A DNA stretch of 64,000 nt from a virus (IMGVR_UViG_3300033148_006964:116927-180926); one strand, 5' to 3'. Positions 9,342 to 61,999 are shown, counted from the first letter of the stretch. The notes: generated by a model from the letters alone, not told the origin. Program-made: numbers and translations.

Positions 9342-9782
9342 CTAAAAATTGCCATCGGCGACTTGTAAACAACATATTCCAAGCCCACGCCACTTTTGTA
9401 CCATTATTTTTCTATCTTCCAAAACTAAAGCAATTTCATCAAATTCTATTCCAGCATCTTCTAATAATTCTGGTTTAACTATAGTATCATGTCTCACGTC
9501 TTTATCTTTTCTTAAAAGAACACGATAAGCTGGGTATACATTATTTTGCCATAACCATTCTATAGTTTTTCTTCTAGTTGATTCTCTTCTAGTAGAACAA
9601 ATAATAATAGTATATTCTGCAGCTAACAATCTAACAAGATCTATAATCACCTGTACAGGTTCGTCTTCGTCACAAGTATCATAAAAGGCATCCCAATTTT
9701 TAGGTTTTTCAGTGATATATTTAAGTCTTGGCCCAATCTTACTTAATGTACCGTCAATGTCAACTACTACATATTTTTTCAT
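9342..9782 (-). CDS. HAD-family phosphatase (3'-phosphatase domain of T4 PNK type)
   Basis: VVVDIDGTL, STRRE, K in VKPEL, VLEDR, GICCLQVADGNF. Confidence 0.85.
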   Translation of the reverse strand: MKKYVVVDIDGTLSKIGPRLKYITEKPKNWDAFYDTCDEDEPVQVIIDLVRLLAAEYTIIICSTRRESTRRKTIEWLWQNNVYPAYRVLLRKDKDVRHDTIVKPELLEDAGIEFDEIALVLEDRKIMVQKWRGLGICCLQVADGNF

Positions 9783-40889: not shown

Positions 40890-42188
40890 TTAATCTTTTA
40901 TTAATCGAACCGAATGTCCACGTTTTCTATTATGTCTACCCAGGGTTAAAGCATTATGCTCAAATCTTAATCCTCGGGAACTATAAACAGGATATGGGTC
41001 AATAGTATTATCAGATGTCCACCAGTAACATTCTTCACGTTGACCTATAAAAGGTCCATAATATGTACGATAACCACATGGGACAGCTGAAAACCCACTA
41101 CTATTATTTAGTGATGGATTATAACCTGGTGTACCTTCATAAGACGATAAATCCCACCCATATTCTATGGCAAGAGATTGCGCCATTCTGTTATATATTG
41201 TTGTTCCGTCATAGTTGTAACCGTTAGTCATTAAATATTCTTCCAATTCTGTCCATTCAGCGATTGTTGGTACGTGCCATCCAATTGGAGCAAGTTTACT
41301 TGTATTTACAACATACCAGTTATATAATACCGAATTTTGTTTCAAGCGTCTTCCTGCATCTGAAGAAGGATTAGTATCGTTATCATAAAAACAGTAGGCG
41401 CCATCATGTGTTCGTGATGTCTGTTCCCACCATAACGAATCATTAGTAATATAAGGTATAGGAGTGCCATCGTTATAATGTGTTACGCGAAGATTTTCTA
41501 CACTCCATTCTTGATTACCTATAACAATTGTTTTGTATATATTACTATCAATATCAATAAGTCGTGGAATGATTGATAATACAATTTTTATATATTGATT
41601 ATATGAATAAAGAGCAATTTTTTTTGGTTTATAATTAGTAGCTTCAACTCTAAGAGTGTCAATAGCATCAATCATTTTTTTTGATAAATGTTTTATATTA
41701 GTATTATTACTGATTTGAAAAACGTTATTTAAAATATTTGTTTTAAACGCATAAGATTGACTACCAATTTTTATACAAACAATATATATACCATTTGCAA
41801 TATCAGTAAATATTGGTATATGATGAGTCCCTGTTTGTAAGTTTAAAATATCAACGCTTAAGACTTTAATGCCTTGAACATTATATGTTTTAATTGAAAC
41901 ACATTCTTTTTTATCAATTGTTATTACCGCAATATTTTTATCTATTTTGATAATATGTTTTGGTAAAAGTTCTTTTTGTGTTTCAATAATCGTTATATAA
42001 TCAATGATCTCAAAATAACCGACTTCATTAGTCGTATCAGAGAATGGTCCTTGATCGAGACTAATATATGCATTTTGAATAGGTAAATCTGTATCTTCTG
42101 CTATGACATTACCAGTAAGCGTAACATGTGTTGACTGTGCTGCATATACTAATAATAATATAAGTATTTTAGTAAGAATTGTTTTCAC
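40890..42188 (-). CDS. Secreted protein with a Fibrobacter succinogenes major paralogous (FISUMP) domain
   Basis: Signal peptide; IGNQEWSVENL...LYNWY...AP.GWHVPT.AEW...GFSAVP.GYR...WWTS...G.SVRLIKD. Confidence 0.85.
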   Translation of the reverse strand: MKTILTKILILLLVYAAQSTHVTLTGNVIAEDTDLPIQNAYISLDQGPFSDTTNEVGYFEIIDYITIIETQKELLPKHIIKIDKNIAVITIDKKECVSIKTYNVQGIKVLSVDILNLQTGTHHIPIFTDIANGIYIVCIKIGSQSYAFKTNILNNVFQISNNTNIKHLSKKMIDAIDTLRVEATNYKPKKIALYSYNQYIKIVLSIIPRLIDIDSNIYKTIVIGNQEWSVENLRVTHYNDGTPIPYITNDSLWWEQTSRTHDGAYCFYDNDTNPSSDAGRRLKQNSVLYNWYVVNTSKLAPIGWHVPTIAEWTELEEYLMTNGYNYDGTTIYNRMAQSLAIEYGWDLSSYEGTPGYNPSLNNSSGFSAVPCGYRTYYGPFIGQREECYWWTSDNTIDPYPVYSSRGLRFEHNALTLGRHNRKRGHSVRLIKD

Positions 42189-42411: not shown

Positions 42412-43008
42412 TTAAATTTCCATATCATCAATTAGTCTTGATAGCTCATCAGGATCAGGAATAGTATCTCTGAAAGTTTCCAGGTCCTCGGGGTTGTGAC
42501 CTAAATCTCTCCAGATATCAGCTCCCAAACTTAATCTTTTTTCGGCAGACTTTAGTTGTCCAGGAACGATAGACATATAATTAATTGCATCGCCCTCATT
42601 CATGCCTTCTCGAATTATAAAATGGGTACTTGGAGAACATAGAATATGTTTATGTTCATTTGGTTCAATTCCATTAAATGATTCCTTTAGAGCATATAAT
42701 GGCGCAGGAGTTGCTTTTCTTTCACGGTCAGTTGTAATAATGTTTTGGCTATAGAAGTCATTTCTTTCTCTTCTATTTCCAATGTTAGTCATTCTGACCA
42801 GATTTCTTATAACCATTTTATTGTATGTTCTTTCTACAAGAAAAAACAAAGCAAACCCACCGTCGAAATTAGATAGTAGTTCCATATGCTGTTGGCTGGT
42901 ACGTCTTGGGAACCGTCTTACATTGCCTGCAAATTTGTTCATGACATTAGGACGTATTAAATTCCTATAATCATATAATAATCGTATATCTGAAGCTGAT
43001 GTGTTCAT
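42412..43008 (-). CDS. Hypothetical protein
   Basis: MNTSASD start overlaps the upstream stop (ATGA), suggesting translational coupling. Confidence 0.6.
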   Translation of the reverse strand: MNTSASDIRLLYDYRNLIRPNVMNKFAGNVRRFPRRTSQQHMELLSNFDGGFALFFLVERTYNKMVIRNLVRMTNIGNRRERNDFYSQNIITTDRERKATPAPLYALKESFNGIEPNEHKHILCSPSTHFIIREGMNEGDAINYMSIVPGQLKSAEKRLSLGADIWRDLGHNPEDLETFRDTIPDPDELSRLIDDMEI

Positions 43009-44579
43009 GAAATTTCCTCCATTATTGGTTTGATGGAATAACTTTTTACACCACGAGGAAGCCGTGTAAAAATATCCCAACCTTTTTGTTTAAAGTATTT
43101 AAGATTGTCTATAAAGATGTTTTTAAATATAGACATTGATATATCCGCATTAGTCTCTTTTACAAAAGACATATACCATCGAGTCAGATTACCGTGGATT
43201 TCATTAGGGCCAGCTTTGTATCCCAAATAATTAGTACTTGACAACTTAATAGGAACGCTGTTTTTATATAAACTTTTAGCTTCATGTTCAATGAAATTAA
43301 TCATTTGAGAATCATATTTATGTTCTTTTCCTTTCTTTGGGTTAACACTAAGATCATCAATTCTTTTGTTAAGTCTGGCAATCTCTTTCTTTTGCACATT
43401 ATCTCTATCTACAAGTTTATCGAAATTTGCCTTAGCTACTTTTGCAAACTTATCAAATGTTGTAGAGAGCTTTTTATACTTCTTTTGAGATTCTAGAGAT
43501 TCTAGATATAGATCAAAAAGCTTTTGGCTTTTTTTTCTTTCTGAATCATCTTCTATGTAACCTTTAGGCATTTTTTTTGTAATATTATGGTGTATTTTTT
43601 TTAAATCATCCTCTGTTACATTGCCTCCAATCCACATATATTTACATTTTTTAATTTTTACTATATATTCAAGATCAATTAAAGCATAGAAAAATCTATA
43701 ATTATTTTTTGGGATTGGCAAAGAATAGATATTGTTATCATTGAAAAGGTTTTTTATTTTTTTTATTATTTTCTCAAATTCATCAGTTGATATCTTATGG
43801 CCACAGCAGACTTTACATGATCCATACCTTTTCCAAGAATACGCTTGTATTGGATATTCTCTTCCACAATCGCATTTAACTAGGAAATATCTTGCGGCGG
43901 TTTCTTTAGAATACCTTTCTTTGGCTTCTTCTTTGGAAAGATCCTTGATATAGGTGAGTTTTTTGTATCTTTCTCCAATGTTGGGTATTATTATAGGGCT
44001 TCTTGGTGAAAGTGGACAATCTATAGAACATCCAAATCTTTTCTTATTTAAATTGGCTATTAATTTTATTGATGTTTTCCCACAGTCACATTTAACTTCA
44101 GCCATTGTCCTTTCTTTGTTTGCGGTATTTGCGTGAAGCATTTTAGTGATAACTAAAGGACCAATTCGTACTCCTACTTTATATTTAGATTTAATGCTAC
44201 ATGTTTTGCTACAACATTCATCCTTTTTAACAGTAGTAGTTAATTTTTTTACAATTTTACCACAACGACACTTTACTTTAAATTGTCTAACGATAGCTCC
44301 AGATTTAAATATTTTTGGTTCAATTTCTCCTATCATAGTAAAATTACCAAATACTTGGCCTTTTTTATATATGGTCTTTTTTTTGAGGCTGCACTGTTTA
44401 CCACAATATTCATGGGTCTTAATATTGTGAGGTGATTTTTTTACAATTTTACCGCAACGACATTTTATTTTAAATTGTCTAACATTGGACCAAAGTTTAG
44501 ATATTTTTAGTTCAACTTCTTCTATTATGGTAAAATTACCAAACACTTGGCCCTTTTTATATATAATTCTTTTACTCAT
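43005..44579 (-). CDS. Protein with four tandem CxCG-containing repeats (HNH-associated type), no nuclease domain evident
   Basis: KKGQVFGNFT.I..E...RQFK.KCRCGK.VKK twice, plus two diverged KCDCG units; AAGGAG RBS at 44579. Confidence 0.65.
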   Translation of the reverse strand: MSKRIIYKKGQVFGNFTIIEEVELKISKLWSNVRQFKIKCRCGKIVKKSPHNIKTHEYCGKQCSLKKKTIYKKGQVFGNFTMIGEIEPKIFKSGAIVRQFKVKCRCGKIVKKLTTTVKKDECCSKTCSIKSKYKVGVRIGPLVITKMLHANTANKERTMAEVKCDCGKTSIKLIANLNKKRFGCSIDCPLSPRSPIIIPNIGERYKKLTYIKDLSKEEAKERYSKETAARYFLVKCDCGREYPIQAYSWKRYGSCKVCCGHKISTDEFEKIIKKIKNLFNDNNIYSLPIPKNNYRFFYALIDLEYIVKIKKCKYMWIGGNVTEDDLKKIHHNITKKMPKGYIEDDSERKKSQKLFDLYLESLESQKKYKKLSTTFDKFAKVAKANFDKLVDRDNVQKKEIARLNKRIDDLSVNPKKGKEHKYDSQMINFIEHEAKSLYKNSVPIKLSSTNYLGYKAGPNEIHGNLTRWYMSFVKETNADISMSIFKNIFIDNLKYFKQKGWDIFTRLPRGVKSYSIKPIMEEIS

Positions 44580-44625
44580 ATTATACTCCTTATTTAAATA
44601 TTTAAGATTTATAATCCTCATAATA

Positions 44626-44654
44626 GTTATGCCAGATTGTGGGTAATAATAACA
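44626..44654 (-). promoter_or_regulatory. Repeated phage promoter/operator motif
   Basis: TGTTAT-N14-TGG-CATAAC. Confidence 0.7.
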
Positions 44655-44704
44655 CTTCTTAATAGCTAAAAAAACGTAATACATTATACATATTGATATT
44701 TAAG

Positions 44705-44733
44705 TTGCTTAATGCTATATTATGTATTATAAC
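44705..44733 (+). promoter_or_regulatory. Sigma70-like promoter upstream of the RNAP gene
   Basis: TTGCTT-N17-TATAAC. Confidence 0.55.
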
Positions 44734-44757: not shown

Positions 44758-47700
44758 ATGCCAATTAAGAGTGATCAAAAGATATTAAGACAATTAGAAA
44801 AGATGGAAACATCTGCACGAAATAATGTGTTGATGAATACAACAGTAGCTGATACTGTGAGTAAAATCCTTAATTCTGTTGAAGATGATGACATAAAACT
44901 TAATGTTAATAAGGTATGGATAGAGAAGAAACATGATAATAGAAATATCCAGGATCAGCAAGATGTAAGAAATAAAGGTCAGGTTTGGAGCAATGAACTT
45001 AGGGCAGATCTTTCTCTTGTTGATAAGGAATCAAATAAAGTTGTCGATCACATTACTAACATAAAAGTTGCCACTATTCCTAAACTCACTGATAGAAACA
45101 CCTATCTTATTAAAGGTAATGAATACCAATTTACTAAACAGTCAAGATTGAAGCCTGGAGTTTATACTAAAGAGCAAACTAATGGTGAGATCAGTTCTTT
45201 TTTTAATGTAGATAAGACTATTGATTTTGATCGTGGATTTAACAATAATTTTAAAATTAATTTTGAACCTGAACGTAAACGTTTTATCATGCAGTATGGT
45301 AGTAAAAGAGTTCCATTGATAAATGCTTTAAAAGCAGTTGGTGTTACTAAAAAAGAACTTGTAGAGAAGTGGGGCCAGGATGTTTATGACGCTAATGCTA
45401 AAGCTTTTGATAAACATGAGAATAGAGATCAGCAAAAATTATATAATGCTATATTTGGTTTTTTGCCAGGAAGTGATCTTACTGATGATCAAGTAAGGAC
45501 AGAAATTAAAGATAGACTTTTTGCTACTAAGCTCGATCCAGATACTACGAAAATAACTTTAGGCAAAGCATATAAAAATGTAGGGAAAGCTCCAATCCTT
45601 GATGCCTCTAAGAAGATCATAGATATCCATCGTGGAGATGTTGAAGGTGATGACCGAGAGTCGCTCATCTTCAAATCTTTTTATGATGTTGAAGATCATA
45701 TCAGAGAGAAGCTCGTTAAGAACAGTAATAAGATTATGTTTAATATGAAATATAAGCTTAAGAAGAATAAAGCAATAAATAAATCATTAAGCTCTCAAAG
45801 TTTTGATCCTTTTATTGTAGGAACTCTTACTAATAGCCAATTGTCCAATCCTCCCACTCAAACAAATCCTATGTCTATTATTGGAGAAACAAGTAAGATG
45901 ACAGTAATGGGAGAAGGTGGTATTGGAACTACTAATGCAATTACGAATGATGTTCGGGAAATATCTAATAGTGAAGCTGGCTTTATAGACCCGCTACATA
46001 CTCCGGAAGGAGGCTCTATTGGAGTTGCCGTTCATCATACTGCAGGTACAATTAAAGTTGGTAATGATATTTATAGTAAGTTTATAAACAAAAAAGGCGA
46101 AAAAATGTTGTTAAGGCCTGTTGATGTTTATGATAGAAATATATCATTTCCAGATCAATTTATTGAAACTGATAAAGGGTTGAAGCCTAAATCTGCTAAA
46201 GTAAAAGTTATTCGTAGAGGTAAGTTAGCTGAAATTGCTGCAAATAAAGTAGATGCTGTAATAAATAGTTCAGTTAATATGTTTGATACATCTGCTAATT
46301 CAATTCCTTTTCTTGATTCAATCCAGGGTAATAGAGGTTTAACTGCTTCTAAAATGCAGGAACAGGCTTTATCTTTAACTAATCGTGATAAACCTATGTT
46401 TAATATTGTGGATAAATCAGGTACAAGTATTGGTGAAACACTTGGAACTCTTATTGCTATTCCAAAATCTTCTATTAATGGGGAAGTAGTTGATATAACT
46501 GATAATGAAATAGTTGTTGCAGATAAAAAAGGTAAAAAGCATATTTCACAGTTATATAATAACTTTTCTCTTAATTCAGAAAGTTTTTTACATAATAGGC
46601 CAATAGTAAAAATTGGCGATTCTGTTAAGAAAGATCAAATTCTTGCTGATAATAATTATACAAGAGATGGTCAAATGTCATTAGGCGCTAATCTTCGAGT
46701 TGCTTATTTGCCATATAAAGGTTATAACTTTGAGGATTCAGCGATTATGTCAGAGAGTGGTGCTAAGAAACTTACTTCACAACATATATATGATCATAAA
46801 GCCAAAAGATCTGCTAATGGTGTTTTTTCGAAATCGAAATATAAAGCTTACTATCCTGAAGAGTTGAACGCTAAACAGGCAGCAAAATTAGATAAAGAAG
46901 GTGTAGCTAAGATTGGTCAGGTTTTAGAACGTGACGATACAGTTGTAGCTTATATGGAACAAAAAGCTCCTACGGCTGATGATTTGGCCGTTGGACGGTT
47001 AGATAAACAGTTACGTAGAGATATGGCTAATGATGCTATAAAGTGGGATAACGATGTCCCAGGGGTGGTTACAGGAGTTAAGAAACATGGTAATAGTGTT
47101 ATAGTTAGTGTAAAAGCAGAAGAGCCACTTAAGGTTGCGGATAAGATATCCGGGTTACATGGTAATAAACATATTATTTCTAAGATAATTCCAGATGAAG
47201 AAATGCCTTTTAATCCTGTTACTGGGAAATATATTGATCTTACAATGAGTCCTATTGGAGTATCAAATAGAATAAATACTTCGCAGTTACTTGAGAATGC
47301 TGCGGGTAAAATAGCTGAAAAAACAGGTGAACAGTTTAAAATACATAATTTTTCAGGTAAAGATAATACTGCTTATATTTTGAATGAATTAAAAAAAGTC
47401 GGGTTATCTGATAAAGATATACTTGTAGATCCGGAAACTAGAAAACCATTTATTAATCCTGTTGCTAATGGTATTTCTCATATACTTAAACTTGAACATA
47501 AAGTTGATCATAAGTATTCTGCCAGGTATCGAGATGGGTATGATTCTAATGAACAGGCTGCTACTGGTGGTAAAACGGGTGGTAAGAATATTGGACGTAT
47601 GGAGATGGCTGCTTTACTTGCTCGTGGTGCCAATGAAAATCTTAGAGAGATGTTTAATATTAAAGGACAAGAGAATACTGAGTATTGGAAAGCTATGGAG

Positions 47701-50700
47701 ACAGGGCAGTCTTTACCACCTCCAAAAAAGGCTTTTGTCTGGGATAAGATGTTATCGATGATGGCTGGTGCTGGTATAGATGTAGAACAAAAAGGTAAAA
47801 CATTTACATTAAAACCTATGACTGACGATGAAATCGTAAAAAAGTCAGCTGGGGAATTAAAGAGGCCGCATGAGACTTATCGTAAAAAAGATCTTATGCC
47901 TATGAGAGAAGGATTATTTGATCCGATTAAAGCTGGCGGTATGTATGGTGAGCACTATACTCACTTTAAACTTCCAGAGAAGATACTTAATCCTATTACT
48001 GCTTCGGCTACAGGTGTTCTTATTGATAAGACATCTACAGAACTTGATAATATTATTAATGGTAGATCATTTATTAATAAGACAACAGGTAAGACTGTAG
48101 AGCCTGGATCTCTTAATGCTATTTCTGGTGGACCTGCTATTGAGAACTTATTAAGTAGGGTTAGTGTTGATGAGGATTTGAAGCAAGCAAAGATGATAGC
48201 TGAGAATTCTAATAACTCAACTGTAATAGAAAAGATGCGTCGAAAGATAAAATATTTAAGGTCATTTAAAGAAAAAGGTATGAAGCCTACTGATTATATG
48301 ATAGAGAATGTTTTAGTTACTCCATCTAAATATAGGCCTATGTTTACTATGGGGACGGAAAAGACTGTTATCATGTCAGATATTAATGAGCTTTATCAAC
48401 AAACAGCTCATAGTGCGCAGGCTTTTAGGGCGGCTAAAAAAGATCTTGATGAGAATGTTAAGAATGAAGATATTAAAAATCTTACACTTGCTGAGATAAG
48501 AGGACAGATATATCAGGATGCAAAAGCAGTTGCAGGATTACAAGAACCTACTTCTTATCTTCATCGAGTAAAAAATAAAAAAGGTTATATAACTCAAATA
48601 GATGGCGGTCAAAAGAAACAAACTAAAGAAGGTTTTTTTCAGGATAAAGTCATGGAGCGTAGGCAGGATCTTGTTGGTAGATCTACTATTATACTTAATC
48701 CTGATCTTGGTGGAGATAATATAGGTATTCCTAAAACTATGGCTACTGAAATATTTAGACCTTTTATAATGAGTAAACTTGTAAGTTGGGGTTATCCTCC
48801 ATTAGAAGCACAGAAGCAAATAAAAGATAAGACTAAAGTGTTTGAAAGAGCTCGTCAGGTAGTTACTGATGATAGATTAGTTATTGCAAATAGAGCGCCT
48901 ACACTTCATAGATGGAACATGACTGCATTTAAGCCTAAGCTTACAGATGGTAAGTCTGTAGAGGTCCCGGCGGTTGTAGTTACTAAGAACTTTTCAGGAG
49001 ATTATGATGGAGACGCTTTCACCATTCATACTCCAGTAAGTCAAGCTGCACTTAAAGAAGCAGAGAAGATGAAACCTTCTGCCAGTATGCTTAAGACCGG
49101 TTATGATACAGTTCTTAATGCTCCTTCTATGGATGCTATTGTAGGTTCATGGCTTGTTTCTAAAGGTATGGGTGGCAATACTATTTCTAAGAAATTTAAG
49201 AATGTTGATGAAGCTAAATATGCATTTGATAACCATAATATTAAGTATAGTGATATGGTTACTATAAATAGTCGCAAAGCTCCTTTTGGTATGCATGCTA
49301 TAAATTCAGTAGTTCCTGAAGATTCTAAGCGTTGGGATGTTGAGCTTGATAAAGATAATGTTGATGATTGGATTCATGATGTAACTAAGAAACATAATGG
49401 TAAACTTGCACTTAATCTTGCTGATAAAGTTAAAGAAATAGGTAATAATTATTCAACAACATTTGGATTTACTCTTGGTGTATCTGATACAGTTGTGGAT
49501 AAAGATATTCGTGATAAAGCCATAAGTCAGGCTAAGAAAAAATCAAAAAGTGGATCTCCTGATTCTATTATTAAAGCTTATTATAATGAACGTGAAAGTG
49601 CACAAAAGGCTCTTGAAAAGAAACATGGTATTAAAACAATGCTTGGTATCGGTATAAAATCAGGTGGAAGTAAAGGCATTGGAAATACAGCTGCCATTAC
49701 ACTTATGCCAGGTATAGTTACAGATGCAAGTGATAGACCTATTCCAATACCAATAACTAAGTCTTATTCAGAAGGTCTTGATACTTTCGGTTACTGGACG
49801 GCTGCTCAAGGTGCTCGTGGTGGAAATATTAAGAAATCAGTTTCTTCTTTTAAACCTGGATGGTTAACTAAAGATCTTATGAATTCTATTTATGATACGA
49901 AGATCTATACAGACGATCCTACGGATACAGAAGGTCTTGAACAGGATATTTCTAATCGGAAAGCTATAACTAATCGTTATCTAGCTCAAGATGTTAAAAA
50001 TACTAAAGGTAAGATAATAGCTAAAAGAAATGATTTAATTGATAGTGATGTAGTTAATAAATTAAATCAACGGGGTATAAAGAAAGTATTTGTACAATCG
50101 CCGATCACTGACCCAACGCCAGGTGATGGGTTTTCAGGATACTCATATGGATTGGATTATGATGGTAAACGTCCGCAACGTGGAGATAATATAGGTGTTA
50201 TATCTGCACATACAATCACAGAACCTTCTCTTAATTTAGCTATGAAGGCTTTTCATACTGGTGGTGCTATGGAAGCTGGGGAAAAGGGTAAAGGGACTTT
50301 ATTTGATAGGTTATGGGATACAGTTCATTTTACTAAGAACGTTCCAGATAAAGCTACAATGTCCAGTATGAATGGTGTTGTATCAAATGTTAATAAATCT
50401 TCTGTTGGTGGGTGGGATGTTGTATTATCAGATGGTAAAAATGAAGAAGTACGATATATTGATCCACGTAATAAACTTATAGTAAATCAGGGCCAATCTA
50501 TTAAAGCTGGTGACATGTTATCAACAGGAACGCCAAGTGTTCATGATGTTTTAAAGTATAAAGGTATGAGACAAGCTCAGAAGTTTCTTGTTGGCGAAAT
50601 AGATAAGATCAATGATGGTAAACTTGATTCAAGGGATATAGAAACAATAGTACGTGGTATATCTAATACGACCAGGGTAACAGATCCTGGTTCAAGTACT

Positions 50701-51102
50701 TATGTTAAAGGTGATGTTGCTCCTCTTACTACTATAGATTATTACAATAAGAATAATCTTAAAGAAGAGGATGTTTCAGATACTGAAGGGGATCATTTAG
50801 CTCAGGGATACGATAAGTATAATTCGGGGATAAAGATAACTAAGAATATGATGAATGATTTTGCCAAGCAGGGTTTAAAGAGGATAAAGGTTCGCAAAGA
50901 TAAGATTAAACATGATCCTTTCCTCACCCCTGCAGGCATAGCGGCTAAAGCGGCATCCAGTGAAGATTGGATAGCACGTTTAGCTCATAATAGAGTAAGG
51001 AAGGTATTACAAGAAGGGACGACTCAGGGTTGGAAGAGTACATTAGATCCAATTAAGGGACATCCTATTTCAAACTATGTGGCAGGAGGCTACTCGTGGT
51101 AG
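44758..51102 (+). CDS. Single-chain two-barrel DNA-directed RNA polymerase (beta-beta' fusion)
   Basis: beta motifs: TPEGGSIG, NRGLTASKMQEQA, GYNFEDS, DKISGLHGNK, GGKNIGRMEM. beta' motifs: EGLFDP, PSKYRP, GRSTI, NRAPTLHR, catalytic GDYDGD, TEPSLNLAMKAFHTGG. Confidence 0.95.
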   Translation: MPIKSDQKILRQLEKMETSARNNVLMNTTVADTVSKILNSVEDDDIKLNVNKVWIEKKHDNRNIQDQQDVRNKGQVWSNELRADLSLVDKESNKVVDHITNIKVATIPKLTDRNTYLIKGNEYQFTKQSRLKPGVYTKEQTNGEISSFFNVDKTIDFDRGFNNNFKINFEPERKRFIMQYGSKRVPLINALKAVGVTKKELVEKWGQDVYDANAKAFDKHENRDQQKLYNAIFGFLPGSDLTDDQVRTEIKDRLFATKLDPDTTKITLGKAYKNVGKAPILDASKKIIDIHRGDVEGDDRESLIFKSFYDVEDHIREKLVKNSNKIMFNMKYKLKKNKAINKSLSSQSFDPFIVGTLTNSQLSNPPTQTNPMSIIGETSKMTVMGEGGIGTTNAITNDVREISNSEAGFIDPLHTPEGGSIGVAVHHTAGTIKVGNDIYSKFINKKGEKMLLRPVDVYDRNISFPDQFIETDKGLKPKSAKVKVIRRGKLAEIAANKVDAVINSSVNMFDTSANSIPFLDSIQGNRGLTASKMQEQALSLTNRDKPMFNIVDKSGTSIGETLGTLIAIPKSSINGEVVDITDNEIVVADKKGKKHISQLYNNFSLNSESFLHNRPIVKIGDSVKKDQILADNNYTRDGQMSLGANLRVAYLPYKGYNFEDSAIMSESGAKKLTSQHIYDHKAKRSANGVFSKSKYKAYYPEELNAKQAAKLDKEGVAKIGQVLERDDTVVAYMEQKAPTADDLAVGRLDKQLRRDMANDAIKWDNDVPGVVTGVKKHGNSVIVSVKAEEPLKVADKISGLHGNKHIISKIIPDEEMPFNPVTGKYIDLTMSPIGVSNRINTSQLLENAAGKIAEKTGEQFKIHNFSGKDNTAYILNELKKVGLSDKDILVDPETRKPFINPVANGISHILKLEHKVDHKYSARYRDGYDSNEQAATGGKTGGKNIGRMEMAALLARGANENLREMFNIKGQENTEYWKAMETGQSLPPPKKAFVWDKMLSMMAGAGIDVEQKGKTFTLKPMTDDEIVKKSAGELKRPHETYRKKDLMPMREGLFDPIKAGGMYGEHYTHFKLPEKILNPITASATGVLIDKTSTELDNIINGRSFINKTTGKTVEPGSLNAISGGPAIENLLSRVSVDEDLKQAKMIAENSNNSTVIEKMRRKIKYLRSFKEKGMKPTDYMIENVLVTPSKYRPMFTMGTEKTVIMSDINELYQQTAHSAQAFRAAKKDLDENVKNEDIKNLTLAEIRGQIYQDAKAVAGLQEPTSYLHRVKNKKGYITQIDGGQKKQTKEGFFQDKVMERRQDLVGRSTIILNPDLGGDNIGIPKTMATEIFRPFIMSKLVSWGYPPLEAQKQIKDKTKVFERARQVVTDDRLVIANRAPTLHRWNMTAFKPKLTDGKSVEVPAVVVTKNFSGDYDGDAFTIHTPVSQAALKEAEKMKPSASMLKTGYDTVLNAPSMDAIVGSWLVSKGMGGNTISKKFKNVDEAKYAFDNHNIKYSDMVTINSRKAPFGMHAINSVVPEDSKRWDVELDKDNVDDWIHDVTKKHNGKLALNLADKVKEIGNNYSTTFGFTLGVSDTVVDKDIRDKAISQAKKKSKSGSPDSIIKAYYNERESAQKALEKKHGIKTMLGIGIKSGGSKGIGNTAAITLMPGIVTDASDRPIPIPITKSYSEGLDTFGYWTAAQGARGGNIKKSVSSFKPGWLTKDLMNSIYDTKIYTDDPTDTEGLEQDISNRKAITNRYLAQDVKNTKGKIIAKRNDLIDSDVVNKLNQRGIKKVFVQSPITDPTPGDGFSGYSYGLDYDGKRPQRGDNIGVISAHTITEPSLNLAMKAFHTGGAMEAGEKGKGTLFDRLWDTVHFTKNVPDKATMSSMNGVVSNVNKSSVGGWDVVLSDGKNEEVRYIDPRNKLIVNQGQSIKAGDMLSTGTPSVHDVLKYKGMRQAQKFLVGEIDKINDGKLDSRDIETIVRGISNTTRVTDPGSSTYVKGDVAPLTTIDYYNKNNLKEEDVSDTEGDHLAQGYDKYNSGIKITKNMMNDFAKQGLKRIKVRKDKIKHDPFLTPAGIAAKAASSEDWIARLAHNRVRKVLQEGTTQGWKSTLDPIKGHPISNYVAGGYSW

Positions 51103-51335
51103 ATAAACAAACTATATTAGAACAGATATATAAAGATTCATTTAATGATGAATTAGAGAAGATGTCTGGTATAGGTGAAATGATCGGTGCAGTTAAAGCA
51201 GCAAAAACAACTATACAGGGTAATAGACAAAATAAAAGAGTAATAAGGCAACAACGAAGACACGATCGTAATATTGGTAAAGGTAATAGCTCTGCTCGTT
51301 GGAAAGGGTTTGCATTACCTGGTACTGGAAATTAA
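51096..51335 (+). CDS. Small basic protein with the shared leader motif
   Basis: DKQTILEQIYKDSFNDELEKMSG. Confidence 0.7.
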   Translation: MVDKQTILEQIYKDSFNDELEKMSGIGEMIGAVKAAKTTIQGNRQNKRVIRQQRRHDRNIGKGNSSARWKGFALPGTGN

Positions 51336-51907: not shown

Positions 51908-53275
51908 ATGGAAGGCCCTTCATTAACTTATGTACCTGTACCATGTATTTGTAGTGGTGTTATTAGTAGTTATATAGGTGAAGATGATGTATATGAAGTT
52001 GCTGTTTATGATTCTCCTGTAGGCGAACTAAATGGCCCTATTCATTGTGGTTTAATATATCCTCCAGGCTTTGACGGTAACTATAAACAAGGGACATATG
52101 TTAAACTTCTTATTCCATTTATGTTTGGTGGTGTTGAAGAGAAATTTATTGATATAGCTCCATCTGCTTCATATTACATTATTGGTACTTTTAATGAAGA
52201 AGTAATGGTTAAAGCTGATGTTGAAAACCCATTGGCTGAAAACGATGAGGATAAAATAAGGTTTATACATCCAAAAAGCAATGCTGGTATTACAGCTTCA
52301 GAAGATGGTAAAACAAAAGTTATATCAGGAGGTGTTTCTTATATACTATTAGCTGCTCTTGGCAATGGGACAATGGAAGAAGCTTCTTATTCAGCTGCAC
52401 AGAACTTTCATCGAGTTATAGCTAATAACGGCCCACTGTATCTTGCTAAAGAACATTTTGGTATGTATCGTGGTAAAGATTATGCTGATAAAGCTTTAAA
52501 TGTAATGCCTGATGATATGCTTATTAACTTTCGAAGATTTGTTACACAATCAAGATCTCCTGAGAACTGGGTGGCTACATGTGAAGGTGCATGGGCTCCT
52601 TTTGTCGGAGCCAATGTAAAGAACGATGAAGTAACGAAAGGAAAAGAGGTCTTATTCTCGAAAGCTGTAAATTATGGAGATTCTAGAATTACGATAGAAA
52701 TGGGTAATCCTGGGGATGAATTTATTAACTTAAGAGTTGATACTATTCCTATAAGTGAAAAAGCTATACCTATGGCTCCAGGTGCAACTCCGGCAGTAGT
52801 TGGTAATAAGTTTAAAATAAATATAAGTGATAGTGGAAAACTTGATATAAGAGCAGGTGGTAAAGGAATTCCAGCAAGTAATATTAATGGGTTGCATATA
52901 AGTATAGATGAATTAAATAATTTAACAATTCATGCTTCTGGTAAGATCACATTTTCTCATGGAGACACTGATGAAGCTAATAACTCTTTAGTTATGGACC
53001 CAAAAACAGGTATTGATATAACAGCATTAAATGGTTTTAGAGTAAATGGACTTGAAGTACTTACCAGAGCATTTCTTGATTGGTTTAATACGTATCAAGC
53101 ATCATTAGTCCAAGTTACAGGAATTGGGGCTCCAGCCCCTATAAGTATTGCTGCGTTACCGGACTTTATTGCAGGAGTTAAGAAGTTTGCAAAGGCGGGT
53201 GGGTTTTCCACAATAGGCAAAAGTGCACCGGCGAGTGGTGTTATTAAAGATGCTGATGCATTTAGAACAGTTTAA
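51908..53275 (+). CDS. Putative baseplate hub/spike (gp5/gpV-like) protein
   Basis: OB-fold-like N-terminus and beta-rich repetitive C-terminus; located in the structural block; weak call. Confidence 0.4.
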   Translation: MEGPSLTYVPVPCICSGVISSYIGEDDVYEVAVYDSPVGELNGPIHCGLIYPPGFDGNYKQGTYVKLLIPFMFGGVEEKFIDIAPSASYYIIGTFNEEVMVKADVENPLAENDEDKIRFIHPKSNAGITASEDGKTKVISGGVSYILLAALGNGTMEEASYSAAQNFHRVIANNGPLYLAKEHFGMYRGKDYADKALNVMPDDMLINFRRFVTQSRSPENWVATCEGAWAPFVGANVKNDEVTKGKEVLFSKAVNYGDSRITIEMGNPGDEFINLRVDTIPISEKAIPMAPGATPAVVGNKFKINISDSGKLDIRAGGKGIPASNINGLHISIDELNNLTIHASGKITFSHGDTDEANNSLVMDPKTGIDITALNGFRVNGLEVLTRAFLDWFNTYQASLVQVTGIGAPAPISIAALPDFIAGVKKFAKAGGFSTIGKSAPASGVIKDADAFRTV

Positions 53276-54014: not shown

Positions 54015-55341
54015 AAATAATGAACGAGAAAATCCATGGTTTTAGTTGTGAGATGAGGATAAACATATATTTATAAAAAATGCTTGTTTTTTATAAGAAA
54101 CTAATGTATATTATTATTATGTTAAAAACATATAAATATAGAATCTATCCAACTGAGGATCAAAAAGTTTTAATATCAAAAACTTTTGGTTGTTGTAGAA
54201 AGATATACAATTGGGCCCTTGATTTTAAGAATAAAAGATATTCACAATATGGAGATAATGTTAACAGGTATGAACTTGATAAAATGTTAACATTTTTAAA
54301 ATCTACAGATGAATTAAAATATCTTAACGAGGTTCATAGTCAATCTCTTCAGCAGGAACTTATTCATCTGGAAAAATCTTTTACAGGATTCTTTAAGAAG
54401 AAGAGTAAATATCCGAATTTTAAAAGCAAGAATAATAGACAATCATATTCTTGTCCGCAAGGGGTAAGAATTAATTCTAAAAATCAAAAAGTCTTTATAC
54501 CAAAGATAAAATATGTCGATTTGAAAATAGACAGACAATTTGATGGTAAGATAAAGACATGCACCGTAAATATGTCACCATCTCAAAAGTATTTTATATC
54601 AATGCTTGTTGATGACGGCAAAGAGCTTCCTTCAAAGAAAGATATAAATAAAGAAACTTCTATAGGCTTAGACGTTGGTATAAAAACATTTCTGACTGAT
54701 TCTAATGGAAACGAAGTTAAGAATCCAAGATTTTATCATAATTCTGAACCAAGAATAAAATGCTTGGGCAAAAGATTGTCAAGAAAAACCAAGGGTTCTA
54801 AGAATAGAAATAAGGCAAGAGTTAGACTTGCTATAAGATATGAGAAAACCTTAAATCAAAGGAAAGACTTTCTTCAAAAGCTTTCAACAAATATTATCAA
54901 AAACCACGATACTATATTTGTTGAAGATCTTGATATTAATAAAATGTTAAAGAATCAAAATTTATCTAAATTAATCAGTGATGTAAGTTGGTTTGAATTT
55001 TTTAGAATGCTTGAATATAAATCTGATTGGTATGGTAAAAATTTTATTAAAATTGGTAAATTTGATCCAAGTTCAAAAATGTGTAGATGCGGAATCATTA
55101 ACAAAGATTTAACTCTTAAGGATAGAACTTGGACTTGTAAAGAGTGCGGTTCTATTAATCAAAGAGATATCTTAGCCGCAGAAAACGTTAAGAAGTTTGG
55201 GTTATTAAGATTTAAGTATGATACATCGCCGGGCGGGCGAGGTGAGCCTGTGGAGCCGCTGTCATTAGACAGGGTTATGAAACAGGAAGCAATACAAGTG
55301 ATTGTATGAAATACATGACTTTAGTCGTGGGAGTATGTCAA
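54015..55341 (+). mobile_element. Non-autonomous IS200/IS605 (tnpB-only) element with degenerate ends
   Basis: LE-like GAAAATCCATGGTTTTAGTTGTGAGATG; RE-like CATGACTTTAGTCGTGGGAGTATGTCAA ending at 55341; left boundary approximate. Confidence 0.75.
54119..55309 (+). CDS. tnpB: TnpB RNA-guided endonuclease
   Basis: MLKTYKYRIYPT HTH; RuvC GLDVG / VEDL / QRDILAA; WTCKECG. Confidence 0.95.
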   Translation: MLKTYKYRIYPTEDQKVLISKTFGCCRKIYNWALDFKNKRYSQYGDNVNRYELDKMLTFLKSTDELKYLNEVHSQSLQQELIHLEKSFTGFFKKKSKYPNFKSKNNRQSYSCPQGVRINSKNQKVFIPKIKYVDLKIDRQFDGKIKTCTVNMSPSQKYFISMLVDDGKELPSKKDINKETSIGLDVGIKTFLTDSNGNEVKNPRFYHNSEPRIKCLGKRLSRKTKGSKNRNKARVRLAIRYEKTLNQRKDFLQKLSTNIIKNHDTIFVEDLDINKMLKNQNLSKLISDVSWFEFFRMLEYKSDWYGKNFIKIGKFDPSSKMCRCGIINKDLTLKDRTWTCKECGSINQRDILAAENVKKFGLLRFKYDTSPGGRGEPVEPLSLDRVMKQEAIQVIV

Positions 55342-56956: not shown

Positions 56957-57370
56957 ATGGATAAGCAAGCGTTGTTAGAACAGGTCTATGAAGAGTCGTT
57001 TAATGATGAGTTGGAGAAGATAAGTGATGAAGTAAAGATACCTGAAGGCGGTCTTAAACCTGGCTTATTAATAAATGATTTAACACGACTTATGACAGAT
57101 GAAGACGCTAAACGTGTTAAAAAAAATAAAAATGTTTTTCTTAGATCAGGCCCTGGATTAATACCAGGAGCGCTTGTTGGTGCTGTAACAGGTAATACTT
57201 TACATTCTCTTTTATCAAAATCTTATAAGTTAAAAAGACCATATGGAGCTATTGCTGGTGGAGCATTATTACCATTAATCGCAATGATTGGATCTAAAGC
57301 TGGGTTATATGATAAACAAGCTTTATCAGCTGCAAAAAAAATGGTGCAAGACACTAAAAAGGAAAAATAA
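56957..57370 (+). CDS. Leader-motif protein with glycine-zipper segments
   Basis: MDKQALLEQVYEESFNDELEKIS; GALVGAVTG, GAIAGGA. Confidence 0.7.
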   Translation: MDKQALLEQVYEESFNDELEKISDEVKIPEGGLKPGLLINDLTRLMTDEDAKRVKKNKNVFLRSGPGLIPGALVGAVTGNTLHSLLSKSYKLKRPYGAIAGGALLPLIAMIGSKAGLYDKQALSAAKKMVQDTKKEK

Positions 57371-57675
57371 TGCCACAAATAAGATTTACAACCTCCGCTT
57401 TAGGTAATTATATAGAACCTAAGATAGAATCTTTTCTTAAGGGTAATATTACTTATATGAAGTCTTTAAAAGAATCAAGTCTTGAAGATGGTGCAGAAAC
57501 AATTGCTAATGCTATTTCTTATGGGATAGCAATAGCTCTTTCAAGTTCTATGATGCAGAGTTCTTTTTCTTTAGGAATATGCCCACCTCCTATTCCTCCA
57601 TCAGCAGTTACTCCTGGTGGGCCTGTTGGATCATTAATATATGCGGCTTTAAAGCCTCAAGTGTTGGAAATATAA
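57370..57675 (+). CDS. Small structural-type protein (paralog of 55438..55719)
   Basis: EDGAETIANAISYGIAIAL...PGGPVGSLI. Confidence 0.65.
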   Translation: MPQIRFTTSALGNYIEPKIESFLKGNITYMKSLKESSLEDGAETIANAISYGIAIALSSSMMQSSFSLGICPPPIPPSAVTPGGPVGSLIYAALKPQVLEI

Positions 57676-58346: not shown

Positions 58347-60569
58347 ATGGAATCTATGCTTAGTACAAAAGACGCAGTTATTCACCCACTGACATTTGAG
58401 AAGGTCGCTGATTATGATTTATCAACCGATTCTTCTGAATGGAACGATGAGATAATTAAATATTTCTATGAGCAGGTTCCTTATTTGCCAAAGGAAATGA
58501 ATTCAGACATTGTTGTTAATAATGTTGATGAAAATAAGGGTTATGCAAAAGGAAGTATTATCGTTTGGTTTAATGATAAAAAGATTAACTTTCCAGTGAT
58601 TGTTAATGATTTTAAATTAAGTCCTTTTGATACTTTTATTTATCAAGATGGTAACAAGTCAGAATATCATCCTGCAAATCTTAATAATATTAAATCAATA
58701 TTAGCTTCATCTCAGATTGGTACTGTAGATTCTCGTAGAAGTGGTTCTGATGGTTATAATAAAGATGTAAAACTTCCTGGTGATATCCAACCTAAAGATA
58801 CTGTACCGATTGATGATGTTGAAGTCGGTATGTATGGTTATCCCGGTGTTAAGATGTCTAGTTGGGCAGCGCATGCTAAAAAAGAAGACCTTGAGAAACT
58901 GGCAGTTCAAATGAAAGCAGAACCTGATGTAGCTAGTTCTTTTGTAGACAACAGTGGAGATCTTATTACTAATGTTATTAGTATGAAAGATAATGAGACT
59001 AAAACTATTAAAGATAGCCAAAAGGATGGCATTTTGGATTTGGATAATGTTATAGATGCCAAACGTGCTGTAACAGCTATTGATTTTGAAATGTTTGATG
59101 TTTCTAAATTAAAACCAGTAGAAGCTCCTTCAGTATGTGAACTTAGAATGTATGAATATCCTTCTATGGAAGATTTTATGGAAAGCGGAAAGAGCATGGC
59201 ATCCAGGTTTATGGCCACTAAAATAGGCAAACCCATTACAGGAATTATTATTGATTATAAAGATGAGTATGATTTTCGTAATGATAGAAATGAAGTAGAG
59301 TCTGCGTATTCATCTGATACTGATGCAGATAAATTAAAAAAAGTACGTAATAAACGTTCTCAGATATTTATATCGGCGGATGGTAAATATTATAGTAAAT
59401 ATAGAGATTATAATAAAACCGGAATAGGGTTTTACGGTTCAGAAATCTTAAATGTGCCTGGAGCTATTGAGAAAGTTGTTAAAATAATTTTTGAAAAAAC
59501 TTCAGATCAATTTTCGTTACTTAATCGTGATAATCGAGGGGATGGGGCTGATAAGAGTTTTGTGCCTAATAAAAACGCAAATCAGGGAATGGAAATGTAT
59601 TCAGATAATATGCCTACCGCTTACTCTCCTAGTGGAAATAATTTAATAGCTATATATGGAGCAGGTGATTCATATGAATCTATAGAATTTGAAGGTAAAT
59701 ATAAGCGTTATATAGTTAATGGTGCTAAAATATATGTTTCAAATAATACTGCTATTATACCAGCTAATGTAGCTGCACCTCAACTTGTTAATTCTGTAGA
59801 AGACCCTGTTTATAAGATGATCTTAGGAACTGGATCAAAATATATATATCTTATGCCTGAGAGTATAATTATAATAAATACTAAGTTTATGAAATGTCTT
59901 GATAAAAAAGATTTTATGAAACCAGATCTTTCAGTTCAGAAGACTTATGAAGATGCTGCTATTAAAAAAGTCGCTGTATTAGTAGATCCTTCACGTCATG
60001 GTTATTGTATAAGCGGAGAGCCATTTGAGTCGCTTCAGAAGATAGCTAGACTTACTGATGATTCAATTCTTTCTACTAAAGAAACACTTGCTGCTCTTAA
60101 TATAATGGGAATGGAAAAAGAAGCTGCTAATACTGTCCTTAAAGTTGCGCTTAATCGTCAACTTGAGAAAACTGCTTTAGATAAATCTGTTAATATATTT
60201 GGGTTAAGAAGTGATTATATTAATACTAAGGCATTTGAAGGTCAGGAAAAACAAGCTCGTATTAAAGATATATATCGTCAGATAGCTGATGATCTTCGTA
60301 AAGATCTTATAAAAGAAGCAAGTGTTTTAACCGATCCTGATGCCGTTGATGTAGTTCTTTCTCTTAATTATATAAACGAAGAAAACCTTAATATGTATAT
60401 TGAGAATATTCCAACTATGAATAAGATCATTGGCGTTCTTGCGCAGCTTCTTATAGCTTCTAGAATGGGGTTATCAGATATGAATGAAGGTGCGATTAAA
60501 AAGGCTATGGAAGGTCTTGATGATGTAGTTTCTGGTCTTGAAGATGTTAAACTAGCAATAGGTAAATAA
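58347..60569 (+). CDS. Large probable head-associated protein
   Basis: Repeated EKxA-type motifs (FEKVA, LEKLA, LEKTA); structural-block context; function is inference. Confidence 0.5.
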   Translation: MESMLSTKDAVIHPLTFEKVADYDLSTDSSEWNDEIIKYFYEQVPYLPKEMNSDIVVNNVDENKGYAKGSIIVWFNDKKINFPVIVNDFKLSPFDTFIYQDGNKSEYHPANLNNIKSILASSQIGTVDSRRSGSDGYNKDVKLPGDIQPKDTVPIDDVEVGMYGYPGVKMSSWAAHAKKEDLEKLAVQMKAEPDVASSFVDNSGDLITNVISMKDNETKTIKDSQKDGILDLDNVIDAKRAVTAIDFEMFDVSKLKPVEAPSVCELRMYEYPSMEDFMESGKSMASRFMATKIGKPITGIIIDYKDEYDFRNDRNEVESAYSSDTDADKLKKVRNKRSQIFISADGKYYSKYRDYNKTGIGFYGSEILNVPGAIEKVVKIIFEKTSDQFSLLNRDNRGDGADKSFVPNKNANQGMEMYSDNMPTAYSPSGNNLIAIYGAGDSYESIEFEGKYKRYIVNGAKIYVSNNTAIIPANVAAPQLVNSVEDPVYKMILGTGSKYIYLMPESIIIINTKFMKCLDKKDFMKPDLSVQKTYEDAAIKKVAVLVDPSRHGYCISGEPFESLQKIARLTDDSILSTKETLAALNIMGMEKEAANTVLKVALNRQLEKTALDKSVNIFGLRSDYINTKAFEGQEKQARIKDIYRQIADDLRKDLIKEASVLTDPDAVDVVLSLNYINEENLNMYIENIPTMNKIIGVLAQLLIASRMGLSDMNEGAIKKAMEGLDDVVSGLEDVKLAIGK

Positions 60570-61502: not shown

Positions 61503-61991
61503 TTAGTGAAGTCTCTTCCTTTCAATATAAGATTGTGCCAGTGCGTCTGCTTTCTCATTCCATCTGTTTGACGCATGGCCTTTGACCCACTGAAAACAAA
61601 AAGATTTAAACTCTCGGGTCAGACTGTCAATCTGTTTCCATAATCTAATATTTAGCACTTTACTACCATTTGTTTTTCTCCATCCCATTGATTTCCATAA
61701 TGGGACATATTCAATAAAATTATCACATACATATTTCGAATCAGTTTTAATTATACAATTATGATTCTTTGAATTATCACAACTTTCTTCAAGGTATTTA
61801 ATTAACGCTTTTAAACTTTCTATAACGGCCATCATTTCCATTTGATTATTAGTTGTATTATCCTCTATTCCTTTTCCGCAAATAATACTGCTTTCTGAAG
61901 CATCAAGAATAATATAACCATAACCACCTTTGCAACCAGCATCTCGCCTATTACCAGAACAACTGCCATCTGTATAAATTATATAAGTCAT
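61503..61991 (-). CDS. rnhA: Ribonuclease HI
   Basis: IYTDGSC.GN...GGYG, TTNNQMEM.A, TDSKYV, W...GW...V.N..LW, WVKGH...NEKAD.LA; D-E-D-D catalytic set intact. Confidence 0.95.
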   Translation of the reverse strand: MTYIIYTDGSCSGNRRDAGCKGGYGYIILDASESSIICGKGIEDNTTNNQMEMMAVIESLKALIKYLEESCDNSKNHNCIIKTDSKYVCDNFIEYVPLWKSMGWRKTNGSKVLNIRLWKQIDSLTREFKSFCFQWVKGHASNRWNEKADALAQSYIERKRLH

Positions 61992-61999
61992 AGGTAATT

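Follow-up and report, generated by a model that had tools for sequence, protein, structure and literature searches.

Bacterial-type RNA polymerases (RNAPs) are thought to need an α-dimer scaffold, two structural zinc sites and an invariant NADFDGD catalytic loop. Fusions of rpoB to rpoC occur in Helicobacter and Wolbachia, where β precedes β′ in cellular enzymes that keep α, ω and their zinc sites. For phages, the accessible text of two reviews describes either split polymerases that work without a sigma factor or sigma factors in phages without a polymerase (PMC7824862, PMC13282480), and the RNAP of phage Arash, a distant cultured relative of the enzyme described here, has been annotated and identified by mass spectrometry although, in the accessible text of its report, it was never analysed (PMC10585845). 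Here we describe a gene for a fused β-β′ RNAP located in a 64,000-nt stretch of viral DNA (IMGVR_UViG_3300033148_006964:116927-180926, hereafter the window), which constitutes the final 64 kb of a 180,926-bp IMG/VR virus record rated as complete by CheckV. Positions refer to the window unless given as genome positions.

A β-β′ polymerase in a single chain

The open reading frame (ORF) at 44758-51102 on the plus strand was uninterrupted over its 2114 codons. Pfam domains Rpb2_3 and Rpb2_6 were recognised at residues 368-939, followed by Rpb1_1, Rpb1_2, Rpb1_3 and Rpb1_5 at residues 1069-1980. A sequence search of the PDB returned exclusively bacterial subunits among the 60 matches listed, with 8i23_C as the best match for the β half (E = 4.7e-67, query residues 359-1009) and 7l7b_D for the β′ half (E = 8e-75, query residues 1123-2000). 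No bacterial phylum stood out, since Firmicutes, Actinobacteria, Thermus and Proteobacteria shared a narrow range of E-values, and identity to any bacterial subunit was merely 20-30%. Alignment of 38 fused proteins with RpoB and RpoC of Salmonella and Staphylococcus aureus (bacterial sequences taken from records misfiled in a phage collection) demonstrated colinearity with bacterial β and β′ across nearly the whole chain. With 2114 aa, the fused chain has 276 residues fewer than β and β′ of S. aureus together (1183 + 1207) and 635 fewer than those of Salmonella (1342 + 1407). Judged by its sequence, the gene is a real single-polypeptide bacterial-type β-β′ RNAP in a phage.

The β module is without the E. 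coli lineage inserts SI1 and SI2 and the 1122-1180 insert, and it keeps the equivalents of the catalytic residues K1065, K1073, R678, R1106, E813 and D814, as do all 38 aligned proteins. Substitutions in the rifampicin pocket (E. coli numbering) were Q513N, F514P, D516T, H526E, R529K, S531T and L533M, at positions which, from known resistance mutations, we take to decide rifampicin binding. The β flap tip, where sigma region 4 canonically docks (PMC7824862), was present. At the end of the module, GIDVEQKGK aligned with the last RpoB residues, and TFTLKPMTD, which follows directly, corresponded to RpoC residues 17-25. The same linker-less junction was found in 38/38 aligned relatives, and the fusion is therefore not an assembly accident.

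The β′ module also lacks ~18 residues after the first conserved block when compared to E. coli-type enzymes, while the bridge helix is retained. In place of the N-terminal zinc ribbon, the segment EGLFDPIKAGGM, followed immediately by YGEHYTHFKL (residues 1051-1072), spans a gap of 32 columns between M1062 and Y1063, situated exactly at C70/C72/C85/C88 and present as a deletion in 38/38 aligned proteins. The ligands of the second zinc site, C814/C888/C895/C898, read P/D/S/S. Overall, none of the 2114 residues is a cysteine (binomial P = 1.2e-14 at the 1.50% cysteine share of the phage proteome).

In the catalytic loop D460/D462/D464 are kept, N458 is replaced with S and A459 with G, and one extra residue stands ahead of them, so that the loop reads FSGDYDGD and departs from the invariant NADFDGD signature. 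Both the Asp triad and β′ R425 were invariant in 38/38 aligned proteins. In the trigger loop Q929 is replaced with N while M932 and H936 are kept; H936 was found in 38/38 proteins, M932 not in all 38. According to the accessible text of one study, Asn458 and Gln929 are universally conserved and both contact the ribose of the nucleoside triphosphate (NTP), R425 is chiefly responsible for sugar selection, and the E. coli enzyme with N458S is still active, its binding step being affected 4-fold (PMC7862312). Near the C-terminus, an insertion of ~44 residues sets the close relatives apart, being missing from the more distant clade described below and from both bacterial RpoC sequences.

A first-pass annotation, made by a model from the DNA alone, had read this gene as a compact single polypeptide in which β motifs are followed by β′ motifs, with NFSGDYDGD in place of NADFDGD, no N-terminal β′ zinc ribbon and no cysteine cluster for the second β′ zinc site. 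All of these readings held up: the order and compactness through the ORF, Pfam and PDB results and the comparison with bacterial pairs, the ribbon through a clean 32-residue deletion, and the second site through its substituted ligands in a protein free of cysteine.

Two clades of fused relatives

A search of 5.8 billion proteins placed the enzyme in a family that is common in metagenomes; the family figures given here are from the best 120 matches listed, all of which were relatives. Seventy-five proteins at 53-80% identity and one at 43% formed a close clade, with at least 70 full-length fused metagenomic relatives in the 53-80% range. Their intein-free lengths were mostly 2040-2137 aa, nearly all had 0 Cys, and their catalytic loop followed the motif N-F-[GS]-G-D-[FY]-D-G-D. 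A distant clade comprised ~40 fused proteins (32-37% identity, roughly 2000-2070 aa) with the loop G-[FY]-N-A-D-F-D-G-D and usually exactly 4 Cys. The four cysteines of the second zinc site were kept in 13/14 distant-clade proteins versus 0/24 in the close clade. Of 24 close-clade proteins, 22 had S or G at the position of Asn458, and 11 of 14 distant ones had N; for Gln929 the corresponding figures were 22/24 with N and 14/14 with Q. As the two replacements follow the same split between clades, both ribose-contacting residues have changed together.

Phylogeny, which the first-pass annotation had proposed as a check, was conducted as a quick IQ-TREE run on the N-terminal part of β′ (46 rows including 4 bacterial sequences, 495 columns, LG+C20, support by the Shimodaira-Hasegawa-like approximate likelihood ratio test, SH-aLRT). 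The tree united both fused clades with the proteins of Arash and Vibrio phage D69 (support 100), apart from the 4 bacterial sequences; proteins of Rhizobium phage TM30 and Ralstonia phage RP13 also fell outside this group. Proteins without cysteine formed a monophyletic clade (support 99) nested within a grade of fused proteins with 4 Cys, while Arash/D69 were placed without resolved support and under long-branch warnings. This topology suggests that the first zinc site was lost group-wide and the second in a single later event.

A profile scan identified 21 loci with the polymerase gene on viral contigs of up to 208 kb, compared to just 2 loci in a scan with the single protein. The number and spread of these relatives speak for a family under selection. 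By homology, the fused enzyme is no orphan, and belongs to a large metagenomic family with distant cultured members. The first-pass annotation had allowed that the protein could belong to an already characterised fused phage RNAP family. In the searchable literature, with subscription journals outside its coverage, we found neither such a family nor any description of a fully fused bacterial-type β-β′ in a phage. Nor did this literature contain a description of a fully fused enzyme that has lost both zinc sites, although such a form would not seem categorically new.

Some relatives were longer owing to inserts. In 28 of 33 relatives of 2400-2700 aa, an insert of 508-536 residues interrupted the catalytic DFDGD loop itself, behind query residues 1418-1420, with matches to the Pfam domains Intein_splicing, LAGLIDADG_3 and Hom_end. 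Close-clade inserts start with C or S and end with ..IIVQD before Thr, which is unusual for an intein; distant-clade inserts end with ..SN before Thr. A ribonucleotide reductase of 1432 aa encoded outside the window (genome 38659-42957, minus strand) had Intein_splicing, LAGLIDADG and HNH/NUMOD3 matches, suggesting that inteins are active in the source phage, although its polymerase gene has none.

A phage sigma factor and the proposed role of the enzyme

No homologue of α (PF01000, PF01193) or ω (PF01192) was found in the whole 180,926-bp genome, using a search that gave matches in 14/14 control genomes. The first-pass annotation had noted the absence of α and sigma genes from the window; this holds for the window, and for α in the entire genome, but a sigma-70-family gene is present elsewhere in the genome, among baseplate and tail genes, and alters the view of the mechanism. 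Its product matched PHROG 351 'RNA polymerase sigma factor' (E = 1.3e-11, residues 5-228) and, weakly, Pfam sigma regions 3 and 4. Thirty-seven of its 38 PDB sequence matches at E ≤ 1 were sigma factors, the best being 8x6g_H with a full-length alignment (E = 0.001). A sigma homologue was detected in 6/6 relatives of at least 90% completeness (4 close, 2 distant) and in one at 84%; three fragments with 47-71% completeness gave no match. Sigma identity followed polymerase identity (70% and 70%; 28-30% and 32%), and all seven homologues were free of cysteine. Comparison of the sigma profile with Arash gp10 gave an hhalign probability of 99.4% (E = 2.6e-21), and the sigma factor was also found in Vibrio phages including D69.

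A predicted complex of β′ residues 1013-1410 with the sigma factor received a score of 0.85, while the best of three controls stood at 0.00. Solved complexes attained this mark in 116 of 157 cases and mismatched pairs in 2 of 215. Separate runs shared at least 53% of contacts, with a predicted local distance difference test (pLDDT) value of at least 73 for the partner. The interface, between the clamp helices (residues 1201-1254 in full-length numbering) and sigma residues 42-61 and 85-95, corresponded to the canonical region-2 contact. The score may however reflect likeness only, because sigma/β′ complexes have already been solved.

The reading that we prefer, with a probability of roughly 0.7, is that of an active, α-less core which works together with the phage sigma factor. 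The gene would encode the complete catalytic core of a two-barrel bacterial-type RNAP in one chain, with the covalent fusion standing in for the α dimer as assembly scaffold. The sigma factor would dock on the clamp helices in the manner of bacterial sigma region 2, and the resulting two-protein holoenzyme would read promoters of the -35/extended -10 type. Since the residues of the pocket are replaced, the enzyme is predicted to be insensitive to rifampicin. More speculatively, loss of cysteine and zinc from polymerase and sigma might be an adaptation to packaging in the capsid and delivery with the DNA; once delivered, the enzyme would begin to transcribe the phage genome without recourse to host RNAP. 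An extended version of this proposal is offered as a tentative one: a host-independent holoenzyme would be packed in the capsid and passed through the tail, cysteine and zinc having been shed for survival of a 238-kDa protein outside the cell and for unfolding and refolding without cofactors, with the changes at Asn458 and Gln929 retuning substrate selection. As between virion delivery and a role after infection, our analysis puts the odds at about even.

The strongest competing explanation, which in our estimate falls somewhat short of an even chance, is an enzyme that stays out of the virion. Early in infection, host RNAP would transcribe the gene from the promoter-like site ahead of it, middle and late transcription would then pass to the fused polymerase together with the phage sigma factor, and the loss of cysteine would be unrelated to packaging. 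The site, expected from the first-pass annotation as a sigma70-like promoter, was indeed found, as a near-consensus -35/extended -10 element; it ends 37 nt before the start codon, in a spacer of 73 bp ahead of the gene, with GGGG located 7-10 nt before the ATG. Although promoter-like sites in the region were no more numerous than expected by chance (34 versus 33.0 ± 5.1 in shuffles), this one was joint best by score, and close-clade loci were found, by eye, to conserve a TTGnnn-17/18-TGnTATATT block ahead of the polymerase gene in 8 of 16 cases. The same promoter type precedes IS605 tnpB genes, which presumably depend on the host polymerase. It precedes structural operons as well, however, and is therefore no marker of early genes. 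Both the polymerase and the sigma factor are moreover devoid of cysteine, a trait shared by many products of the structural blocks on the plus strand: among 17 Cys-poor proteins with a length of 150 aa or more, 12 have plus-strand genes, which for the most part lie in structural blocks. This shared state fits a protein that leaves the cell, without being proof of it. Virion mass spectrometry of Arash, as given in the accessible text, counted 3516 spectra for the polymerase protein gp206, the most detected of all, 1210 for gp216 and 467 for sigma gp10, compared to 1333 for the major capsid protein, although the authors state that abundant infection proteins may contaminate virion preparations (PMC10585845).

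As an observation in its own right, a Cys-free protein of 1110 aa (genome 47281-50613, outside the window; P = 4.9e-8) without a family match heads the structural block that holds the sigma gene.

An unlikely alternative is that the phage sigma factor redirects the host core, as T4 gp55 or SPO1 gp28 do, while the fused enzyme uses another factor or none, comparable to the non-virion polymerases of phiKZ and AR9 with their non-sigma subunits. Such a division would agree with reviews whose accessible text pairs phage sigma factors with the host core and multisubunit phage polymerases with no sigma factor (PMC7824862, PMC13282480), with the separate locations of the two genes, and with the conserved 455-aa and 740-aa proteins that travel with the polymerase gene. 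It is harder to reconcile with the co-occurrence of sigma and fused polymerase in all six near-complete genomes, in both clades, as well as in Arash and D69, or with the retention of clamp helices and flap tip, the predicted complex that passes its controls and the Cys-free state of the sigma factor itself. Still less probable is that the fused protein has ceased to be a normal RNAP and has acquired altered substrate use, such as relaxed sugar selection, or a mainly structural role. The replacement of both ribose-contacting residues in most of the close clade, with canonical residues in most or all distant-clade proteins, and the disappearance of both zinc sites speak in its favour; against these stand the invariant Asp triad, R425, β lysines and H936, the activity retained by E. 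coli N458S, and an identity of 53-80% across 2114 residues within the clade, as a working enzyme would show. That the fusion arose through faulty assembly or gene calling, or that a piece of host rpoBC ended up on a mis-assembled contig, can be dismissed in view of the identical junction in 38/38 proteins from independent assemblies, the position of the gene inside a phage genome of 181 kb that CheckV rates complete and that carries TerL, portal, sheath and baseplate genes, and the just 20-30% identity to bacterial subunits, from which the tree separates the family (4 bacterial sequences, SH-aLRT 100).

Several points weigh against an active α-less core served by the phage sigma factor. For the fused protein and its fully fused relatives all support comes from sequence and prediction. 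The sigma and polymerase genes lie ~107 kb apart, and the sigma factor could serve the host core rather than the fused enzyme. With Asn458 replaced by Ser and Gln929 by Asn, activity or selectivity could be altered. An AlphaFold2 model of the β′ module (1102 aa, 12 sequences) was poor (pLDDT 63.8, falling below 50 in the active-site loop and the region of the former second zinc site; predicted template modelling score (pTM) 0.32) and consequently gives no structural detail for the zinc-less regions; in a Foldseek search with this low-confidence model the top 50 matches were all bacterial β′ chains, at a template modelling score of ~0.2. Sites of the form TGnTAT(A/T)(A/T)T were just 1.7-fold denser in intergenic DNA (2.75/kb versus 1.63/kb), and because the promoter analysis separates no classes, transcription of the polymerase gene by host RNAP is equally possible. 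The packaging idea draws on a single distant relative, Arash, whose virion list runs to 116 proteins and for which the authors allow carry-over of abundant proteins (PMC10585845). An SNF2 helicase was considered as a further Cys-free partner and rejected, the helicase here having 13 Cys.

The fused family appears to dispense with the α scaffold, the zinc sites and the NADFDGD loop and yet keeps a recognisable sigma partner; if active, it offers a test of what scaffold, zinc sites and loop are for, and would provide a Cys-free, rifampicin-insensitive orthogonal transcription system with a one-gene core. Should the packaged two-protein holoenzyme prove true, it would be the simplest known bacterial-type transcription machine, with a core from a single gene.

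Genomic surroundings and comparison with described polymerases

Table 1. Positions of the polymerase gene, its parts and associated features (window coordinates unless marked as genome)
Feature	Position	Strand	Basis or remark
Fused β-β′ RNA polymerase gene, 2114 aa	44758..51102	+	Stop codon included; sole long ORF there
β module, residues 1-1012	44758..47793	+	Alignment with Salmonella and S. aureus RpoB
Rifampicin-pocket equivalent, residues 356-389	45823..45924	+	Alignment
β flap-tip equivalent, residues 733-759	46954..47034	+	3-residue deletion in alignment
β/β′ junction, ...GIDVEQKGK / TFTLKPMTDDEI...	47773..47835	+	No linker; alignment
β′ module, residues 1013-2114	47794..51099	+	Alignment, PDB search; without SI3
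Deleted N-terminal zinc ribbon site, residues 1051-1072	47908..47973	+	Alignment with RpoC
Clamp-helices (coiled-coil) equivalent, residues 1207-1257	48376..48528	+	Alignment; predicted sigma contact surface
Catalytic loop KNFSGDYDGD, residues 1410-1419	48985..49014	+	Alignment, motif search
Lost second zinc site region, DDPTDTEG ... SPITDPTPGDGFSGYSYGLD, residues 1719-1800	49912..50157	+	Alignment
Trigger loop start HTITEPSLNLAMKAFHTGG, residues 1818-1836	50209..50265	+	Alignment
Insertion of ~44 residues near C-terminus, residues 2002-2045	50761..50892	+	Close clade only
Promoter-like site TTGATA-17-TATATT, TG upstream of -10 (extended -10 type)	44693..44721	+	10/12 matches
Divergent motif TGTTATTAT-N12-GGCATAACTATTATGAGG	44616..44654	-	One of 6 copies of bipartite motif
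Other bipartite-motif copies	~42242, 40780, 24057; genome ~43176, 112640	- (window copies)	
Conserved downstream 455-aa neighbour	51908..53275	+	Homologue downstream of polymerase gene in 13/21 related loci
Conserved downstream 740-aa neighbour	58347..60569	+	In 13/21 related loci, including 5/5 distant-clade loci
Two paralogues of ~105 aa	55390-55719 and 57370-57675	+	Match same ORFs in 12 related loci
Sigma-70-family gene, 230 aa	genome 54125-54817	+	Outside window, ~107 kb upstream of polymerase gene

The source DNA has a guanine-cytosine content of ~31%. The genome also encodes a large terminase, tail sheath, baseplate wedge and portal homologues, the true portal homologue being located at genome 87411-89477, as well as a primase-helicase, the intein-bearing ribonucleotide reductase and several IS605-type tnpB genes.

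Genes downstream of the polymerase had been expected by the first-pass annotation to be probable virion genes, an expectation that found no support, as they gave no family or phage-database match. The 455-aa neighbour had no match in Pfam, PHROG or the phage database. For the 740-aa neighbour there was no family match, no tblastn match against phages and no usable match in the ESM Atlas, and its AlphaFold2 model (12 sequences) reached a mean pLDDT of 54.1 and a pTM of 0.35, too low for use in a structure search. A portal identity for this protein was considered and rejected (hhalign against the Arash portal, 0.2% probability). Together with the pair of ~105-aa paralogues, these two genes form what, from their recurrence across related loci, is a conserved module beside the polymerase. 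A 79-codon ORF with a Lys/Arg-rich tail (51096-51335, plus strand) overlaps the polymerase stop codon; none of the 21 related loci contained a homologue. The window includes three IS605-type tnpB genes (54080-55309 on the plus strand, 4897-6057 and 21150-22253), with two further copies elsewhere in the genome. The copy at 54080-55309 is probably a recent insertion, since it had no match in any of the 21 related loci compared, although these share the rest of the gene block behind the polymerase.

In a search of 92 upstream regions with k-mers and mismatch seeds, we recovered the ribosome-binding site, the TATATTAT -10 type and a leftward bipartite motif in six copies; enrichment was weak in these regions, and neither promoter class was tied to the phage or host polymerase. 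The bipartite motif, TGTTAT(A/T)AT-N12/13-GGnATAACTATTATG.., was always found on the minus strand before leftward genes, and its reverse-complement counterpart was present upstream of the polymerase gene in relatives. Its first box resembles an extended -10 element, and the 5' leader would contain the second. One copy, at 44616-44654, falls within codons 1-23 of the ORF at 43005-44684, the true start of which is probably later.

Further genes were noted in the window. Adjoining genes for RNase H (PF00075, 9e-32) and a reverse transcriptase (PF00078, 1e-20) are located at 61503-63094 on the minus strand, near the end of the record. An RtcB-type RNA ligase (PHROG 1075; 26845-27954, minus strand) and a polynucleotide kinase (PHROG 415; 9342-9782, minus strand) suggest an RNA-repair set, which can be likened to sets in phages that counter tRNA-cleaving defences. 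A 432-aa protein (40890-42188, minus strand) carries the Fibrobacter succinogenes major paralogous domain (PF09603, 1.2e-31) and is a possible, weak hint at the host, beside a Chitinophagales metagenome-assembled genome (MAG) bin that holds a relative. Host assignment from a scan of genome contigs was rejected: just 3 MAG bins were obtained, and they were discordant (Chitinophagales, Thermoplasmatales and Woesearchaeota), most likely as a result of mis-binned phage contigs.

Compared to the bacterial core enzyme, as seen in Clostridioides difficile (7L7B), Clostridium thermocellum (8I23) and S. aureus (8X6F), the fused protein is colinear over its full length (E = 1e-58 to 1e-75) and shares the catalytic residues, bridge helix, trigger loop, clamp helices and flap tip, with a predicted partner of the sigma-70 family. 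It differs in being one chain, with no α or ω gene in the source phage, no zinc sites and no cysteine, in the substitutions N458S, A459G and Q929N, in its replaced rifampicin pocket and in being 276 aa shorter than the S. aureus pair. The enzyme may nonetheless make use of host α.

The likeness to Arash (OQ632216; polymerase gp206 and gp216, sigma gp10) and the Vibrio phages D69/D148/D181 extends over 68-86% of the query at 29-30% identity. Large terminase (4e-39), portal (2.8e-70) and a homologous sigma factor likewise place these phages and the source phage in one viral lineage, with genomes of ~180-187 kb. In Arash and D69, too, β is fused to the N-terminal part of β′ and the N-terminal zinc ribbon is missing; this β::β′-N chain is almost Cys-free (1-2 Cys), and its loop, AADYDGD, is without the canonical Asn. 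Their β′ is however split after the catalytic half into genes of 1525-1527 aa and 606-610 aa, which are 5 kb apart in Arash, and the C-terminal piece of D69 keeps 4 Cys, whereas the source phage has one chain from which the second zinc site is gone.

The phage β and β′ of mReC (multimeric-RNAP-encoding Caudovirales; Weinheimer and Aylward 2020, PMC7481178) are likewise related to cellular subunits and branch apart from them, but are separate proteins, often in two sets, among the rows listed of Supplementary Dataset 1. Inclusion in that survey, the one published for phage β/β′ genes, called for a NADxDGD motif, which the source protein does not have, and the fused family was excluded from it for this reason; in the accessible text of the survey, the word 'fused' is used for crAssphage only, and mReC capsids are said to match T4 gp23 (PF07068) (PMC7481178). 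No match to the PF07068 capsid was found among 146 source-genome proteins scanned (small ORFs in part).

The polymerases of phiKZ and AR9 are also two-barrel phage enzymes without α or ω, one set of which is packaged in the virion, and they are resistant to rifampicin. Unlike the fused enzyme, they consist of 4-5 polypeptides, are far more divergent and, in the accessible text of the reviews, have no sigma homologue (PMC7824862, PMC13282480). Against PHROG, the fused protein gave weak partial matches to phrog_3295 (1.2e-20) and phrog_2987 (1.5e-13). The crAss-like gp66, of ~2180 aa, and YonO resemble it in holding both barrels in one polypeptide. The accessible literature describes gp66 as virion-packaged, and the two proteins have no detectable similarity to β/β′ outside the barrels (PMC7481178), in contrast to the source protein, which is similar over nearly its full length. 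Split sigma-less phage polymerases and sigma-only phages make up a textbook divide in the accessible text of the reviews (PMC7824862, PMC13282480); by homology, the source lineage has both a sigma factor and a multisubunit-type polymerase, and so breaks it.

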